Source: a virus
Taxonomy: Duplodnaviria > Heunggongvirae > Uroviricota > Caudoviricetes
Length of the DNA stretch: 31,815 nucleotides
Strand: one strand, 5' to 3'
IMG/VR virus record: IMGVR_UViG_2603880148_000002
Span: 1-31,815 of that record
Shown: piece by piece, positions 1 through 7,020 of the stretch
Position numbering within the stretch: position 1 is the stretch's first letter
Layout: every line of letters starts with the position of its first letter
Program-made: the position numbers and the translations under genes
The notes under the pieces: model-generated
What the model saw: only the letters and a program-made list of their open reading frames with translations
Told to the model about the DNA's origin: nothing
Database searches by the model: none

Positions 1-339
1 AAGACGCAATCTCTTTCCGCTTGTACAACCCGTAACTGCGGCGCGTACAGCAAGTGTTTGTGCGGCAAGTATGCCAAACCAGTCGGCGGCATTCCGCAGC
101 CGCTTCAGGAGAGCCACGTCAGATAATGTTGCAACGTCATGGAGCTGAGCCCATGCAGTGACTTCACGTAATGACATCCCCCCGGGGCCGTAAGCCAGCC
201 CCAGACGTAGCAGAGTTGCAGCATCACGAATTTCGCGGCGGCGGGTTAGAGCCCCGGCATTACGTGCCGAAGTATCCAGTTCTTCGGGCTTACCAATATG
301 GGCCAGAATTGCTGACCAGTTATCGTGAGAGTAATTCAT
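1..339 (-). CDS. insL: IS186 transposase InsL, N-terminal 113 codons (partial, runs off window)
   Basis: Reverse-complement translation from ATG at 339-337 reads MNYSHDNWSAILAHIGKPEELDTSARNAGALTRRREIRDAATLLRLGLAYGPGGMSLREVTAWAQLHDV..., which I recognise as the IS186 transposase N-terminus. Not in the ORF track because it is truncated. Confidence 0.85.
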   Translation of the reverse strand, partial: MNYSHDNWSAILAHIGKPEELDTSARNAGALTRRREIRDAATLLRLGLAYGPGGMSLREVTAWAQLHDVATLSDVALLKRLRNAADWFGILAAQTLAVRAAVTGCTSGKRLRL

Positions 340-394
340 CGGCACGTTAAATCATATCAGGCGTAATACCACAACCCTTAAGTTAGCGCTTATG
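1..394 (-). mobile_element. IS186 (IS4 family) insertion sequence, left end only; continues beyond window start
   Basis: Contains the 5' part of the transposase gene; the sequence just before the flanking DNA (about 372-394) matches my recollection of the IS186 terminal repeat, and the flank GGGGCGGGTCCCC (395-407) is the G-run/C-run target type IS186 prefers. End coordinate approximate. Confidence 0.75.
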
Positions 395-431
395 GGGCGG
401 GTCCCCGATGGCGGTCCATTATCGGTATTCA

Positions 432-508
432 GCGTTGTTAGCTCAGCCGGACAGAGCAATTGCCTTCTAAGCAATCGGTCACTGGTTCGAATCCAGTACA
501 GCGCGCCA
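432..508 (+). tRNA. tRNA-Arg, anticodon UCU (reads AGA)
   Basis: Cloverleaf folded by hand: acceptor GCGTTGT/ACAGCGC (one G-U pair), D-stem GCTC/GAGC, anticodon stem ATTGC/GCAAT with loop CTTCTAA, 5-nt variable loop, T-stem ACTGG/CCAGT with TTCGAAT loop, discriminator G and encoded CCA. Differs from host argU at many positions, so phage-type. Confidence 0.85.
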
Positions 509-645
509 TATTCATTCTTCCAGATTCCTTTCGGCAGAGCCTTATACTGAAATATACCTGGCTCAGGATATTGTTGAAAATATTATATGTTTGTCAAAAA
601 TAAAAGTTCTGTTAAGTGTTGATTGAGTGTTTGTTATACGGTCTA

Positions 646-972
646 ATGGTTTTTTCAGCATTAAATATTTATCATTCATATGGTGTGGGTAGAGTGAATA
701 TTGATGAGGCGTCGGGGTGTTTCATCCTTAGGCAGCGTATTGATATAGTCAATGCAGAACGAGCAAAGGCCTTCAGCCGTTTGACAGTTTTGTTCTGTAC
801 TCCTGATCGTCTTTCGGGAAGAGACGTTATTATTCTGAATAGTGATGCTATACAGAGGGTTTGCGATGAGTTCATGGTGGCTAATTCAGAATTATTTGCT
901 CTTGTTCAGGAGTACAACAGAATAGCCAGGACCTGTGGTATGGATGAACTTCGGATTACTCATCTGGGGTAG
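646..972 (+). CDS. hypothetical protein in AT-rich island (start uncertain; track ORF begins at 616)
   Basis: Track ORF 616..972; first in-frame ATG at 646. No recognisable motif. Weak promoter-like TTGATT-17-TCTAAT overlaps the ATG. Confidence 0.3.
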   Translation: MVFSALNIYHSYGVGRVNIDEASGCFILRQRIDIVNAERAKAFSRLTVLFCTPDRLSGRDVIILNSDAIQRVCDEFMVANSELFALVQEYNRIARTCGMDELRITHLG

Positions 973-1364
973 ATACATATCTGGATTATCACCGGTTACG
1001 GTAAAAAGTGATTGCTTACTGTTTTTGTGAATGGCATTGCAGCAGCCGGATAATGTCAGTGCTGGCTGACGGTGTGCTGGTGGCGGGTGTGGTGGTTGCT
1101 GCTTTCCCGTTGCTGAAAAAGAAAACGCCAGACTGTTAGCCGGGTATCAGTTAGCGGGAGAAATTTTTAAATACTTCACAATTCAGGCGGTTGACTGTTG
1201 TCTGGTTTGCGGGGAGTTTGTTAAAAGAAACTGGCATGGTGAATCCCCCTGTGCGGAGGGGCAATCAGCGAGTAGGTATATGGGATAATCGCGGATTCAG
1301 GTGCTGGTACTGAATTCACCGGGAGGCACCCGGCACCATGCAATGGCACATAGCGCCACTCTCC

Positions 1365-1398
1365 AGCCCCTCTCCGGAGGGGCTGTTTATATTGATTT
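1365..1398 (+). terminator. intrinsic terminator-like hairpin
   Basis: Perfect 8-bp stem AGCCCCTC/GAGGGGCT with TCCG loop (1365-1384) followed by GTTTATATTGATTTTG. Confidence 0.45.
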
Positions 1399-1419
1399 TG
1401 TCAGATGTGAGTAAACTCC

Positions 1420-1755
1420 TTATGGACTTTGTTGTTTTAGCCCATAAGGACATATTTGCAGAGTGCAACGGTTATTAAAGCATTCATTCAATACGTTATC
1501 TGTATTTGTAGGGCATTCCTGGCTGTTTTTGATTAAATTCCAGAATGTTTTATTGAATGGTACTACGTTGTAAATGGTTACAGGCAGCACTTTGTTATTG
1601 AGCATGATGCCTGTGTGAGTCAGTGTAAATATACTTTCAGGAGGTAAGAAAGCATCCGATTGATACCAGATTATTAATTTTATTTTACTCCATATGACTG
1701 AAAAAGATATTCCGCATGATGGCTGGATAACTGTATCAATCACAATCCACTTCAT
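1420..1755 (-). CDS. hypothetical protein, 111 aa, AT-rich cargo gene
   Basis: Track ORF; good RBS AAGGAA 6-9 nt upstream of the ATG on the - strand. No recognisable domain. Confidence 0.35.
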
Positions 1756-2015
1756 TTAGTTTCCTTGTTTATGCCTTGCTGGTGATGTTCTGAAAAGTAT
1801 AAATGATATTTTTGATTGTAAACCATAGAGCAGAATTATTTTTCTGATGTTGTTTATTGTTTATTTAAATGCAGGGTGGTTTATATCTCGTCTTGTAGTT
1901 TATCCATGCATATCTGCTTGATGATGAGGTTTTTAATTAAGGTATGGTTTTGTGTTTTTTCTGTATTACATGTCAGGTATTTTAAAGAATCATTTTTCAG
2001 ATGGTGGAAAGAACC

Positions 2016-3872
2016 ATGGCATTTAAACACTATGATGTTGTCAGGGCGGCGTCGCCGTCAGATCTTGCGGAAAAGCTGACACATAAACTGAAAGAGGGCT
2101 GGCAGCCGTTTGGTAGTCCGGTGGCCATAACCCCTTATACCCTGATGCAGGCGATTGCAGCAGAAGGTGATGTGGTCGTCAGTGGTGCAACTGAGCCGGA
2201 GTGGTACTACGTCATCGTACTGGCCGGGCAATCCAATGCCATGGCTTACGGTGAAGGGCTTCCGCTTCCGGATTCTTACGATGCGCCCCACCCACGCATT
2301 AAGCAACTGGCCCGTCGCAACACAGTGACTCCCGGTGGTAAAGCATGCGCATTTAACGACATCATTCCGGCAGACCACTGCCTGCATGATGTTCAGGATA
2401 TGAGCGCACTGAATCATCCGAAGGCAGACCTGAGCAAAGGGCAGTACGGCTGTGTCGGCCAGGGCTTACATATTGCCAAAAAACTGCTTCCGTATATCCC
2501 GAATAACGCGGGGATCCTGCTGGTACCATGCTGTCGTGGTGGTTCGGCATTCACCCAGGGCGCGGAGGGGACATTCAGTGCGGACACGGGGGCCAGCCAG
2601 GATTCGGCACGCTGGGGTGTGGGTAAACCGTTATATCAGGACCTGATCGCACGCACCAAAGCGGCATTACAGAAGAACCCGAAAAATGTGTTGCTGGCGG
2701 TGTGCTGGATGCAGGGCGAATTTGACATGAGCGCTGCCACCTACGCACAGCAACCGGACCTGTTCACGGCCATGCTGAAGCAGTTCCGTACTGACCTTTC
2801 CGGATTTAACGCGCAGTGCCATGGCGGCAGTGCTGCAGTTGTACCGTGGATTTGTGGCGACACGACGTATTACTGGAAAAACACATACGGCACACAGTAT
2901 GACTCCGTCTACGGCGCGTACAAAAACAGGGAGAGCGACAACGTTTTCTTTGTGCCGTTCATGACCGACGGTAACGGCAACAACACGCCCACCAACTTAC
3001 CGGCAGAAGACCCGGATATTGCTGATGCAGGTTATTACGGCGCGCAATCCCGTAGTAATGGTAATTGGGTATCGTCAAATCGTCCGACACATTTCAGTTC
3101 ATGGGCGCGCAGGGGCATTATTTCGGATCGCCTGGCAACCGCTATTCTGAACGCAGTTGGTCGAACCAGCGCCTTCATCAGCGGTACCGCACCGGAGATT
3201 AAACCCTCGCCCGGCGGCGACACGCCATCGGGGCCGTCTGATGGTGACACATCCGTTCGTACAGTCTCCCTGCTGCCGACAGCCGGAGAGGCTGCTGCGC
3301 AGGGCTGGACCATCACCGGCGGCAGTGTTGCGCTGGAAGATGGTGTGTTTAAGGTTACCAAGCAGAGCAATAAAACCTGGTCCCTGATGCATCCGGTGGA
3401 TGACGCGGTCTCCCTGCTGACACGGGGTGGCAGACTGAGCTGTAAGTTTCGACTGTCAGGCGCACTGACCAACAACCAGTTCGGTCTGGGAATTTATCTG
3501 TATACCGATGTAGCGTTACCTGACGTCGTGGCGATGACCGGGACTGGTAACCCGTTCCTGATGTCGTTCTTCACCCAGACCACAGACGGCAAACTGAATC
3601 TGATGCATCACAAGAAAGCCGGAAACACAAAGTTGGGCGAGTTCGGGAATTACAGTAACGACTGGCAGACGCTGGAGCTGGTGTTCACCGCCGGCAGTGC
3701 CACGGTTACTCCGAAACTGAATGGAGTGGCTGGCCCGGCATTCCAGGTCATAAAAGACAGTCTGACACTGGGGCTGAATGCGCTGACGCTGACGGATATT
3801 ACCAAAAATGCAGCGTATGGCGTTGAGATAGAAAGTCTGGTGCTGGAGATAAATGCACCGGCATCATCATAA
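2016..3872 (+). CDS. nanS: prophage sialate O-acetylesterase (NanS-p-like) with C-terminal extension
   Basis: N-terminus MAFKHYDVVRAASPSDLAEKLTHKLKEGWQPFGSPVAI... followed by VIVLAGQSNAMAYGEG (SGNH/SASA-type esterase block) as in NanS-p proteins found next to lysis genes in EHEC lambdoid phages. Start taken at the second ATG (2016), which has a GGTGGA RBS; the track ORF starts at 2001. Confidence 0.8.
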   Translation: MAFKHYDVVRAASPSDLAEKLTHKLKEGWQPFGSPVAITPYTLMQAIAAEGDVVVSGATEPEWYYVIVLAGQSNAMAYGEGLPLPDSYDAPHPRIKQLARRNTVTPGGKACAFNDIIPADHCLHDVQDMSALNHPKADLSKGQYGCVGQGLHIAKKLLPYIPNNAGILLVPCCRGGSAFTQGAEGTFSADTGASQDSARWGVGKPLYQDLIARTKAALQKNPKNVLLAVCWMQGEFDMSAATYAQQPDLFTAMLKQFRTDLSGFNAQCHGGSAAVVPWICGDTTYYWKNTYGTQYDSVYGAYKNRESDNVFFVPFMTDGNGNNTPTNLPAEDPDIADAGYYGAQSRSNGNWVSSNRPTHFSSWARRGIISDRLATAILNAVGRTSAFISGTAPEIKPSPGGDTPSGPSDGDTSVRTVSLLPTAGEAAAQGWTITGGSVALEDGVFKVTKQSNKTWSLMHPVDDAVSLLTRGGRLSCKFRLSGALTNNQFGLGIYLYTDVALPDVVAMTGTGNPFLMSFFTQTTDGKLNLMHHKKAGNTKLGEFGNYSNDWQTLELVFTAGSATVTPKLNGVAGPAFQVIKDSLTLGLNALTLTDITKNAAYGVEIESLVLEINAPASS

Positions 3873-3956
3873 AAAGTGAGCCAGTCAAATGGAAGGTATC
3901 GTTAAACTCACCGGTAGTGTCAGTGGGTCGTCTGAGATGCCTGCATGAGTTATCAG

Positions 3957-3988
3957 AGCCATCAGTACTTAACTGGTGGCTTTTTTTA
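3957..3988 (+). terminator. intrinsic terminator-like hairpin upstream of the holin gene
   Basis: Stem AGCCATCAG/CTGGTGGCT (9 bp, one G-U) with 7-nt loop followed by TTTTTTT. Confidence 0.5.
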
Positions 3989-4022
3989 TTGTTGTCAGCT
4001 TCCGGATAACGGGAGACGGGGT

Positions 4023-4238
4023 ATGTACCAGATGGAAAAAATCACAACAGGTGTGTCATACACCACGTCAGCGGTGGGAACGGGCTACTGGTTCCTGCAG
4101 TTGCTGGACAGGGTTTCCCCGTCTCAGTGGGCGGCAATAGGCGTGCTGGGGAGTCTGCTGTTTGGGCTGCTGACATATCTGACTAACCTGTATTTCAAAA
4201 TCAGAGAGGACCGTCGTAAGGCTGCACGGGGAGAGTAA
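4023..4238 (+). CDS. S: class II holin (phage 21 S-like pinholin), 71 aa, with dual-start motif
   Basis: [71 protein letters not shown] closely resembles the phage 21 S pinholin as I recall it. Met1 and Met4 give the usual two starts; RBS GGGAGA upstream of 4023. The track ORF extends further upstream, to 3945. Confidence 0.85.
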
Positions 4239-4242
4239 TTCA

Positions 4243-4587
4243 ATGACTCAAAACTATGAACTGATTGTGAAAGGGATCCGCAATTTTGAGAATAAAGTTA
4301 CGATAACTTTAGCGTTACGGGACAAAAAACGCTTTGACGGTGAAATTTTTGACCTGGACATCTCGCTGGACCGTGTTGAAGGTGCCGCGCTGGAGTTTTA
4401 TGAGGCAGCAGCCAGAAGGAGCATCAGACAGGTCTTCCTGGATGTTGCTGCCGGGTTATGTGAAGGGGATGAGCAGTCGCCGGAAAAGCGCCCCGTAATT
4501 TTAGAGGCGCAGGATGTGTTGATAACCTACAGAGGAAAACTACCGGGAATAATTACGGGTTCTCTGAAGAGTCCGCCGAAATGGTAA
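4243..4587 (+). CDS. hypothetical protein, 114 aa, inserted between holin and endolysin
   Basis: Track ORF starting 5 nt after the holin stop with a GGAGAG-like RBS. No recognisable motif. Confidence 0.4.
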   Translation: MTQNYELIVKGIRNFENKVTITLALRDKKRFDGEIFDLDISLDRVEGAALEFYEAAARRSIRQVFLDVAAGLCEGDEQSPEKRPVILEAQDVLITYRGKLPGIITGSLKSPPKW

Positions 4588-4825
4588 TTTTACCAGCATA
4601 TTTTTCATCCAGTAATACAGCAAGCCGCCTGAAAGAGTCTTGTTGTTCCTGAGACCATTTGGGATTGCATGATTCAAACTGGATTGATGCCAGCGTTGAT
4701 TGCATCTGTTCCCTTGGAATTGAGAATGCCAGATATGAGAAGGCGACGGTAAGGGTATTCACGTCTTCCCGAAGCCTGGAAATGCTGTCGAGCAACTCCT
4801 GTAGAGAAATGGTGTTATTGTCCAT
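4553..4825 (-). CDS. hypothetical protein, 90 aa, convergent with and overlapping the 3' end of the 114-aa ORF
   Basis: Track ORF; AGGA RBS about 9 nt upstream of the ATG on the - strand. No recognisable motif. Confidence 0.3.
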   Translation of the reverse strand: MDNNTISLQELLDSISRLREDVNTLTVAFSYLAFSIPREQMQSTLASIQFESCNPKWSQEQQDSFRRLAVLLDEKYAGKITISADSSENP

Positions 4826-4930
4826 AAATAATCCTCATGATTGTATTGACCTGTTAGCAGCCTGAGGCAACAGGCTGGAACTGATAAACATATCCAGGGC
4901 TCAGAAACCGATAAATCCTGATAAATATCC

Positions 4931-5464
4931 ATGAACGCAAAAATCAGATACGGCCTGTCGGCTGCCGTTCTGGCGCTGATTGCCGCTGGTGCGCCTGCGC
5001 CTGACATTCTCGACCAGTTTCTGGATGAAAAGGAAGGTAACCACACCACGGCATACCGTGATGGCGCGGGTATCTGGACCATCTGCCGCGGTGCCATCCT
5101 GGTGGATGGCAAACCTGTCGTTCCGGGCATGAAGTTGTCGAAGGAAAAATGCGACCGGGTTAACGCCATTGAGCGTGATAAGGCGCTGGCATGGGTGGAG
5201 AAAAACATCAAAGTGCCATTGAGCGAACCCCAGAAAGCGGGGATCGCGTCATTCTGTCCGTACAACATTGGTCCCGGTAAGTGTTTCCCGTCGACGTTTT
5301 ATAAACGAATTAATGCAGGTGATCGCAGGGGAGCGTGTGAGGCGATTCGCTGGTGGATTAAGGACGGTGGCAGAGACTGCCGTATTCGTTCAAACAACTG
5401 CTACGGTCAGGTATCCCGTCGTGACCAGGAGAGCGCGCTGGCGTGCTGGGGTATCGACAGATAA
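4931..5464 (+). CDS. R: SAR endolysin (phage lysozyme, T4 lysozyme-like fold)
   Basis: N-terminal Gly/Ala-rich hydrophobic stretch GLSAAVLALIAAGAPA typical of a signal-anchor-release domain, then the catalytic block EGNHTTAYRDGAGIWTICRG (E-8aa-D-5aa-T spacing as in phage 21 R-type lysozymes). Pairs functionally with the pinholin. Confidence 0.9.
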   Translation: MNAKIRYGLSAAVLALIAAGAPAPDILDQFLDEKEGNHTTAYRDGAGIWTICRGAILVDGKPVVPGMKLSKEKCDRVNAIERDKALAWVEKNIKVPLSEPQKAGIASFCPYNIGPGKCFPSTFYKRINAGDRRGACEAIRWWIKDGGRDCRIRSNNCYGQVSRRDQESALACWGIDR

Positions 5465-5553
5465 GCAGAATATTTTGCTGAAAAATGCGGTTTGCTTACA
5501 CGGACGGATAACACGAAATCCTGCGAACTGACAAAAACTAAGTGAATAAAAGT

Positions 5554-5593
5554 AAAAACCCCGTTTGTTGGCAGCAAGCGGGGTTTTGTTTTT
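5554..5593 (+). terminator. strong intrinsic terminator-like hairpin after the endolysin gene
   Basis: 9-bp stem CCCCGTTTG/CAAGCGGGG with 7-nt loop (5559-5583), then TTTTGTTTTT. Confidence 0.55.
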
Positions 5594-5658
5594 ATGGCAG
5601 TAAGCTATGGGAGGCTGCCTTGATTGATTTTAGCAAACTGATTAGGGAGTTGCGACTC

Positions 5659-5754
5659 ATGATTAGTCAATTACCAAACTGGAAATTTTTGCTGGTCTGG
5701 AGCATCCCTTTTTTATGGGTAGTATCCCAGTTAATTGTGGCAATTAAGGGGTAG
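5659..5754 (+). CDS. small hydrophobic peptide, 31 aa (MISQLPNWKFLLVWSIPFLWVVSQLIVAIKG)
   Basis: Internal ATG of track ORF 5542..5754 preceded by a GGGAG RBS; predicted single transmembrane helix. Confidence 0.25.
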   Translation: MISQLPNWKFLLVWSIPFLWVVSQLIVAIKG

Positions 5755-5756
5755 CT

Positions 5757-5888
5757 ATGTCAGACAAACTCATAACGCCGGCAAAGGTCCTGTGTGTGAT
5801 TGTCGGTATTTCATTTTCACTAATGCTGGTTGCTCTTTTTCTGTCCCTCGCCTGGGTGATGTTGTCTTCGTCGGGGCTGCTGGGGTGA
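5757..5888 (+). CDS. small hydrophobic peptide, 43 aa (MSDKLITPAKVLCVIVGISFSLMLVALFLSLAWVMLSSSGLLG)
   Basis: Read by hand in the frame the track omits (under 60 aa); ATG 2 nt after the previous stop. Confidence 0.3.
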   Translation: MSDKLITPAKVLCVIVGISFSLMLVALFLSLAWVMLSSSGLLG

Positions 5889-6007
5889 CAGTGACTGATG
5901 ACATCAGCAGAGCGCTGGCTTTTGCTATTAAGTGGGTGGCTGTTGGTATTGCTGTGTCTCCGATGCTGTATGGGCTGGCAAAACTGGTCATTGCGCTGAA
6001 ATCGTGA
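5885..6007 (+). CDS. small hydrophobic peptide, about 40 aa (VTVTDDISRALAFAIKWVAVGIAVSPMLYGLAKLVIALKS), GTG start assumed
   Basis: C-terminal part of track ORF 5735..6007; GTG overlaps the stop of the previous peptide. Paralogous to the next peptide (RALAFAIKWVAVGIAV versus [16 protein letters not shown]). Confidence 0.3.
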   Translation: MTVTDDISRALAFAIKWVAVGIAVSPMLYGLAKLVIALKS

Positions 6008-6018
6008 ACTTTAAAAAG

Positions 6019-6105
6019 ATGAGTGCTGAACTTATTCGGGCAATGGCATTTGCCATTCGTATTGTGGCCATTGCTGTTCTGGTCTGGGCAATCCGTTGGT
6101 GGTGA
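6019..6105 (+). CDS. small hydrophobic peptide, 28 aa ([28 protein letters not shown])
   Basis: Read by hand; stop lies 1 nt before the Rz ATG. Confidence 0.3.
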
Positions 6106-6106
6106 T

Positions 6107-6601
6107 ATGAACCGTGTTCTGTGTGTGGTGATTATTGTCATGCTGGTAGCCTGTGGTGTGCTTAGTCTGGGGCTGAATCATTACCGCGATAACGCCATCA
6201 CCTACAAAGCGCAGCGCGATAAAAAAGTCAGTGAGCTGAAACTGGCGAATGCCACTATTACTGACATGCAGCAGCGCCAGCGAGATGTCGCTGCGCTTGA
6301 TGCCAGATACACGAAGGAATTAGCCGATGCGAGAGCTGAAAATGAAACTCTGCGCGCTGATGTTGCCGCTGGTCGTAAGCGCCTGCGGGTCAACGCCACC
6401 TGCCCCGGTACCGTGCGTGAAGCCACCGGCACCTCCAGCGTGGATAATGCAACCGGCCCCCGACTGGCAGACACCGCTGAACGGGATTATTTCATCCTCA
6501 GAGAACGGTTGATGACAATGCAGAAGCAGCTGGAAGGGGCGCAGGAATATATCCGCACTCAGTGCACTAAGCTGGCTTTTTATTATCCGGAGGATACATG
6601 A
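6107..6601 (+). CDS. Rz: Rz, inner-membrane spanin (i-spanin)
   Basis: [39 protein letters not shown]...[24 protein letters not shown] matches lambda Rz as I recall it: N-terminal TM helix plus coiled-coil periplasmic domain. Start at the internal ATG of track ORF 6023..6601. Confidence 0.9.
6327..6512 (+). CDS. Rz1: Rz1, outer-membrane lipoprotein spanin (o-spanin), embedded in the +1 frame of Rz
   Basis: [61 protein letters not shown]: lipobox VVSAC and proline-rich body very similar to lambda Rz1; fully nested inside Rz. Confidence 0.85.
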
Positions 6602-6822
6602 AGAAATTACGGGTAACCGTAGAACCTTTTCAGGGAACAATTCCGTTCCGTATTTTGCAGCGTGGTCGTGTTCTTGTTGAAGGTTCGTTCAGTGGTAAAT
6701 GTACGCAATTACACTCCCGGACCTTTCAGGTGAATGCCACGAATGAAGAGCTAACCGTGGAGTGTACGATGAATGCCGCTAAATGCCGCATGGTATCCGC
6801 TGCATTACAACCAGTGTGTTGA
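6598..6822 (+). CDS. hypothetical protein, 74 aa, translationally coupled to Rz
   Basis: ATG overlaps the Rz stop (ATGA at 6598-6601). No recognisable motif. Confidence 0.45.
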
Positions 6823-7020
6823 GCGACCTTATTATCCATGCGCGGTATTGTCGCCGTATTCCTGCATTAACAGAGACCGCAGCCCGACAGGGAGACTCCT
6901 CTGCGCGAGTGTGCGGGGATAATCAAAAACGATACACACCGGGGTTTACCGCGTTAACGGAGCGCGGCGTTGTCCCCTCATAGTCGCCTGTCCGGTGCGA
7001 TGGTGGAAGAAACCGAACGT

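Follow-up and report, generated by a model that had tools for sequence, protein, structure and literature searches.

A recurrent IS186 insertion in the T-arm of a decayed argN gene within the late region of a lambdoid prophage

An IS186 element occupies what is left of an arginine tRNA gene (argN) in the prophage late region studied here, and we hold, at a probability of about three in four, that it arrived by simple target-driven transposition into a lambdoid prophage, with a near-neutral effect on the lytic programme and a probable reduction in the basal expression of the following tRNA gene, argO. The stretch of DNA that was analysed (hereafter the window) is 31,815 nucleotides of a Caudoviricetes record (IMGVR_UViG_2603880148_000002). 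As the left edge of the window falls within the IS, only relatives show its other end, the second copy of the target-site duplication, ileZ, pT, Q, and pR'. The features at the left edge of the window are as follows.

1..394, minus strand: left (transposase-proximal) end of IS186 (IS186/IS421, IS4 family), 394 bp; the rest of the ~1339-bp element lies upstream of the window
1..339, minus strand: first 113 codons of the IS186 transposase (InsL), with ATG at 339 and a translation free of stops up to the window edge
372..394, minus strand: 23-bp terminal inverted repeat of IS186, CATAAGCGCTAACTTAAGGGTTG, an exact match to both IS186 ends in K-12, L001, and L003-L007
395..404, plus strand: right-hand copy of the target-site duplication, GGGCGGGTCC (GG, the 6-bp core GCGGGT, CC), 10 bp
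395..418, plus strand: 3' end of the decayed argN (tRNA-Arg UCG), comprising a T-loop remnant, the 3' strand of the T-stem, the 3' acceptor strand, and CCA
419..431, plus strand: argN-argO intergenic spacer, 13 nt, TTATCGGTATTCA
432..508, plus strand: intact argO-type tRNA-Arg(UCU), anticodon TCT, the only tRNA called in the window by ARAGORN

The element and its target site

Read as its reverse complement, window 1-394 matches the opening 394 nt of E. coli K-12 MG1655 IS186A without a single difference (394/394), so that the original prediction had named the element correctly. Of 5426 complete E. coli genomes, 3472 contain this IS DNA at 100% identity, under the RefSeq label "IS4-like element IS421 family transposase". 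The 113 InsL codons that lie in the window gave no Pfam match, and the full-length transposase of L001 (strain 3502), which is identical over the part present in the window, matches PF01609 (DDE_Tnp_1) at 1.6e-26. Transcription of this gene heads away from the tRNA and is antisense to phage late transcription. The IS186 of L001 measures 1339 bp, and the copies are nearly identical among relatives, with 2 SNPs distinguishing that of L006. The copies of L003 (18708-20045) and L004 (18708-20045) carry a different 1-nt deletion each (alignment columns 212 and 1132), which frameshifts the transposase; the rest of both elements equals the K-12 copy, and the IS site is the same in the two, with prophage backbones and integration sites that differ.

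Researchers have published the target of IS186 as a highly specific 5'-GGGG(N6/N7)CCCC-3' sequence (PMC5009759), and both this consensus and insertion in either orientation have been described (PMC5009759, PMC6925257). A G-run/C-run target of the kind preferred by IS186 had been proposed for the present site from the window alone, and comparison with IS-free relatives, which was suggested at the same time, confirms it. The empty site in the IS-free L002 is GCGGGGGCGGGTCCCCG, and such relatives read ...GTGCGGGGGCGGGTCCCCGATGG... at this position, which gives both the target and the duplication; the reconstructed target, GGGG-GCGGGT-CCCC, fits the published consensus. The sequence quoted in the original prediction as abutting the IS, GGGGCGGGTCCCC, is indeed present; however, the IS ends with the first G of this sequence, which is not part of the target flank. 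The other IS end and the second copy of the duplication, for which a search upstream had been advised, were found in the relatives L001 and L003-L006 only, in all of which the 10-bp GGGCGGGTCC borders both IS ends; in L001, for example, the left flank is ...GCGGGGGCGGGTCC and the right flank is GGGCGGGTCCCCGATGG... Sequence comparison, which for the duplication and the operon position draws on the relatives, shows what the element is, where it sits in the operon, which site it entered, and what it duplicated there.

The insertion agrees closely with what is known of this element. IS186 (copies A/B/C in K-12; IS421 is a synonym, and the family is IS4), for which lon, fimA, and menC are hot spots, has the same sequence, 23-bp inverted repeat, and target, and IS186A itself stands in a target of GGGG-ATCACT-CCCC with the 10-bp duplication geometry that the relatives show at the present site. 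The consensus motif is scarce here. It has one further occurrence in the 31.8-kb window, at 17865, and in the IS-free L002 (17 kb) and L009 (22 kb) it is confined to the argN T-arm; therefore, the position of the insertion is not a matter of chance. The second GGGG(N6)CCCC target in the window (17865-17878, GGGGGCAAAACCCC) is located in ORF 17638-18060, at a place where L004 has a tail assembly chaperone gene.

The duplication also bears on the possibility that the IS marks the boundary of a rearrangement (IS186-IS186 recombination, deletion, or inversion), by which the late region would have been severed from Q and pR' and the prophage reduced to a remnant. Recombination between IS copies happens often in E. 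coli (PMC5009759), large deletions are present nearby in L001 and L007, and the start of the window inside the IS places the upstream DNA outside our view. Nevertheless, all six fully sequenced insertions (L001 and L003-L006 in the relic, L007 in an intact argN) have both inverted repeats, a perfect duplication, and an adjoining ileZ, and the visible 31.8 kb are an uninterrupted late region, which makes a rearrangement quite improbable.

The argN relic and recurrence of the insertion

The distance from the IS end to the tRNA gene had been estimated at about 37 bp, and it is exactly 37 bp (395-431) to the tRNA-Arg(TCT) called by ARAGORN. These 37 bp had been annotated as a spacer, and we correct this annotation to an argN relic followed by a normal spacer. 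Positions 395..418 align with the intact argN of the Stx phage 933W, that of L009, and the reconstructed site of L007, and the subsequent 13-nt spacing is that between the intact argN and argO of 933W and of the reconstructed L007. Window positions 398-516 align with argN/argO of 933W at 92%. The downstream tRNA gene is intact; its counterpart in the IS-free L002 scores 68 bits against the Rfam tRNA model, and its 933W homologue is annotated as argO. When the relic in L002 is compared with intact argN, alignment is limited to the 5' acceptor/D-arm and the 3' T-stem/acceptor/CCA, and the middle is scrambled. We also considered the relic as an unusual functional tRNA and rejected this, because the empty site of L002 is called neither by ARAGORN nor by Rfam at E<=1. 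The argN relic is a pseudogene and not a tRNA. The ileZ-argN-argO cluster is typical of Stx-type lambdoid phages; ileZ, pT, and argO are conserved in the lineage of the window, and argN has decayed. By alignment, the target of IS186 is the surviving T-arm of the argN relic in this cluster. In 933W the argN T-stem reads GGGG...CCTC and is an imperfect IS186 target; the window differs in carrying a relic split by IS186.

Several further observations concern the cluster itself. Phage mEp460_ev081 (LR597641.1) has an IS-free copy of the argN relic with argO at 39421-39547, identical (100%) to window 394-520, which shows that a record of the phage collection shares the relic arrangement. In the relatives whose junction matches at 100% (strains 3502 and TUM2805), homology ends within argO at about window position 473 and most late genes are deleted, and other sequence takes the place of the 3' half of argO in L009 and L010, the relatives nearest in their esterase gene. 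Homology in argO breaks from about 9473 onward in L001 and from about 8528 onward in L009, and the tRNA cluster looks like a frequent breakpoint of recombination or deletion.

The same position has been used more than once. A 126-bp junction probe run against the 5426 complete E. coli genomes detected 9 genomes with the IS orientation of the window, 4 of which are near-identical isolates; 2 genomes match window 1-431 at 100%, and 7 more have the same junction. In about 10 further genomes the match starts no earlier than the 23-bp inverted repeat, a sign of the opposite orientation, and this orientation, with the same position and duplication, was verified in L005 and L006. The opposite orientation also occurs in a near-identical prophage, since L011 (a 5211-bp contig of JGI metagenome 3300029840) is 99.3% identical to window 372-4582 over 4.2 kb, and at its positions 1-60 the other IS186 end abuts the same GGGCGGGTCCCC; the assembly of this contig evidently broke at the IS. 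A distinct insertion is found in L007 (E. coli Z1323PEC0012, 4707-6045), where argN is intact except that IS186 splits its T-arm at GGGG-TTCAAGT-CCCC; the duplication there is 11 bp long, and in silico removal of the IS yields a tRNA-Arg(TCG) that ARAGORN can call. The intact argN site, as it is split in L007, is unoccupied in many STEC genomes. Taken together, the orientations, the variation in the flanks, and the separate site in L007 imply that IS186 inserted independently three times or more, as judged from these alignments. We attempted to separate insertion events by IS sequence as well, and the copies proved too similar to resolve more than these.

In total, the site is occupied in about 19 of the 5426 complete E. 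coli genomes and in one metagenome contig, in both orientations. The same tRNA/accessory-gene module is present in at least 1182 genomes, so that occupancy is of the order of 1-2%. In a megablast search of the same 5426 genomes with window 1-6000, the best match (95.7%) is without the IS, and searches for proteins identical to the esterase and IraM yielded nothing but IS-free relatives and one metagenome contig of opposite orientation. Scans for the exact junction in the GTDB species representatives and in IMG/VR gave no match. No IS186 at this site was found among 50,697 phage records (INPHARED), and the phage collection matches IS186 in a single entry, an unannotated 5-kb fragment whose end coincides with the IS boundary. 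Insertion at one site in either orientation is known from other IS186 hot spots (PMC5009759) and is seen likewise here; only the location differs, being the phage argN T-arm or its relic. We found no published report of the argN T-arm as an IS186 hot spot in the open-access literature. The argN T-arm is a recurrent hot spot of IS186, and this is an only mildly new point, as the element and its behaviour were already known. Target preference alone explains both the position and the recurrence.

Recurrence could also be read as a sign of selection, in which the insertion would shield argO and the accessory and lysis genes against pT or against leaky read-through from pR' and thereby tune basal expression or lower spontaneous lysis; in the opposite orientation, read-out from the transposase gene could drive these genes, and either way the insertion would contribute to domesticating the prophage. 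About 19 genomes, whose prophage backbones differ, have this site occupied, pT is present upstream of ileZ (a start driving the tRNAs is described in PMC7547250), and Lee et al. explicitly raise, without deciding it, the question of selection on retained IS186 targets (PMC5009759). However, recurrence is predicted by target specificity, given that the T-arm is almost the sole consensus site in the region; occupancy is low (about 19 genomes against at least 1182 with the same module); no outward sigma-70-like promoter, which could drive argO, was matched at the IS end; and the occurrence of both orientations speaks against a directional regulatory role. We therefore regard selection for the insertion as highly improbable. 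A related idea is that the argN T-arm is a built-in landing pad for IS186 whose occupancy is meaningful, cutting argO, the accessory genes, and the lysis genes off from pT or attenuating Q-dependent expression, possibly as a reversible host-side switch that tames prophages, and to this we give little credence.

The late operon and the expected consequences

In every relative, the order is Q, pR'/tR', pT, ileZ, the IS (or its site), argO, accessory genes, lysis genes, and morphogenesis genes, and a Q-type antiterminator (PF03589 "Antiterm", DUF1133 with PF06530, or PF06323) lies upstream on the same strand. Directly after Q, the relatives have a promoter-like TTGATT-N16-TAAATT and then a strong intrinsic terminator, AACCCGCCGCCGAGCGGGTT with a T-run, and in some of them a small ORF and a gene for a DNA methyltransferase separate this terminator from pT. 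The pT of the 933W record is conserved in the relatives, and the record itself runs Q, pR', qut, two terminators, pT, ileZ, argN, argO, a terminator, and stx2A. The gene order of 933W (Q - pR' - qut - tR' - pT - tRNAs - stx - lysis) is the same and its sequence is homologous, whereas here there is no stx, and argO is followed by a DUF3927 ORF, iraM (minus strand), and the gene of a 623-aa NanS-p-type esterase. The window then encodes holin, endolysin, spanin, two terminase subunits, capsid-protease, portal, tail genes, J, lom, and tail fibre; those tested, from holin to J, all lie on the plus strand. The prophage is lambdoid and related to Stx phages, without stx. Judging at least from the relatives, the IS appears to lie inside the late transcription unit of such a prophage, downstream of pR'. 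The placement at the entry to the late operon that had been proposed therefore holds up: L001, L003, and L004, whose junction is identical, and L005 and L006, of opposite orientation, place the IS after Q/pR'/tR' and before lysis, and in the relatives the IS neither falls outside the prophage nor precedes the late promoter.

Some details of the late genes were recorded along the way. The portal ORF (12352-15423) contains a 162-bp (54-aa, in-frame) tandem repeat at 13939-14957, with 6.3 copies at 95% identity, which brings the ORF to 1023 aa against the 859 positions of the PHROG profile; the portal homologue of L004 is shorter and annotated as frameshifted, and the repeat copy number seems to vary. 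Between endolysin (4931-5464) and the start of spanin homology (from about 6107) there is a gap of about 640 bp (5465-6100) with short, hydrophobic-looking ORFs at 5542-5754, 5757-5888, and 5932-6105. Window 6565-7011 has no match in L009, the closest relative.

What the insertion does to this operon was the most far-reaching part of the original prediction, which held that it could uncouple the lysis and morphogenesis genes from Q and leave the prophage defective. As a full explanation, the IS would be a polar block between pR' and these genes, so that Q could not activate them and neither lysis nor particles would result. The position of the IS, downstream of pR'/tR' and upstream of all late genes, fits such a block, and in the orientation of the window the IS presents the late transcript with 1.3 kb of untranslated RNA and a hairpin with a U-tract. 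This terminator-like hairpin, GCCGGAAAGGGAGCTCCGGC followed by TTTTTT, is internal to the IS, at 8609-8628 of L001 and thus about 390 bp upstream of the window start; it confronts phage late transcription only in the window's IS orientation, and its stability is not exceptional (z = -1.26). At the same L001 coordinates, GCCGGAAAGGGAGCTCCGGC is followed by TTTTTTATTA, within the transposase gene and on the opposite strand. The absence of IS186 at this site from every sequenced phage record searched and the degradation of several IS-bearing prophages also favor a block. Most IS-bearing prophages inspected are in fact degraded by other ISs, frameshifts, or deletions, which fits neutral decay but also the IS as a first disabling hit.

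The properties of Q argue the other way. Q loads at qut/pR', remains with the polymerase over the whole late operon, and makes it processive and able to pass intrinsic as well as Rho-dependent terminators, and suppression of polarity by lambda Q is proven (PMC12360218, which cites Forbes and Herskowitz 1982, Yang and Roberts 1989, and Roberts et al. 2008), although the available figures for read-through efficiency are those of the Q proteins of lambda, 82, and 21, and the Q types in the relatives differ from these. The polarity of IS insertions in lambda operons is overcome by phage antiterminators (Forbes and Herskowitz 1982 for Q), and the IS here likewise lies in an antitermination operon, downstream of the qut/pR' loading site; read-through is predicted here, where the Q proteins of the relatives are of the PF03589 and DUF1133/PF06530 types and not lambda Q. 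In addition, comparable terminator-like hairpins are native to the sense strand of the operon, at window 1364-1385 and 3955-3983, the latter just before holin, and the annotators of 933W likewise marked several terminators. The late genes are also intact: each of the ten tested against PHROGs (NanS-p-type esterase, holin, endolysin, spanin, TerS, TerL, capsid-protease, portal, tape measure, and J) has its full length, and the reading frames where the other tail genes and the tail fibre lie run without a break, which fits neutrality or a recent event. Both orientations recur, as target preference alone predicts. Thus, Q control probably survives because Q-modified polymerase resists terminators, native hairpins must already be passed, and the late genes are intact; the uncoupling of the late genes from Q is unlikely, and we regard a polar block as improbable. 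The IS hairpin and the 1.3 kb of untranslated RNA are a quantitative and not a qualitative change to the operon.

Under target-driven, near-neutral insertion, the course of events was probably as follows. The argN gene decayed first, with its T-stem persisting as GGGG-GCGGGT-CCCC, and the IS186 transposase, which recognises GGGG(N6/N7)CCCC, found in the argN T-arm almost the only such sequence in these prophages. IS186 then inserted there, duplicated 10 bp, and came to rest 37 bp before argO with its transposase gene antisense to late transcription. After induction, Q-modified polymerase from pR' would read through the IS as it does through tR' and the other terminators, and the lysis and virion genes would remain under Q control, so that the insertion would be close to neutral for the lytic programme.

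In the lysogen, where pR' transcripts stop at tR', the situation would be different. In the Sakai Stx2 phage, the tRNA cluster appears to be driven from its own transcription start, which lies past tR' and ahead of the tRNAs (PMC7547250); the 933W record names this start pT. Since the IS stands between pT-ileZ and argO, constitutive pT transcripts would no longer reach argO and would enter 1.3 kb of untranslated antisense IS RNA with a hairpin and a U-tract, and we infer that basal argO expression in the lysogen is probably lost or reduced. The IS also adds portable homology, and it may excise precisely, so that this state may be reversible; precise excision of IS186 is known at another hot spot (PMC3861542).

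Meaning for lambdoid prophages

An IS186 in its preferred site is ordinary and of little weight alone. Three points go beyond the original prediction, namely the nature of the supposed spacer as an argN relic, the separation of argO from pT and ileZ by the IS, and the use of the site as a hot spot in two orientations. The argN T-arm hot spot in lambdoid and Stx-like prophages helps to interpret breaks in E. coli genome assemblies and the typing of prophages. The insertion also offers a natural test case for how well a non-lambda Q carries polymerase through an IS, and for the dependence of the rare-codon tRNA argO on pT in lysogens.
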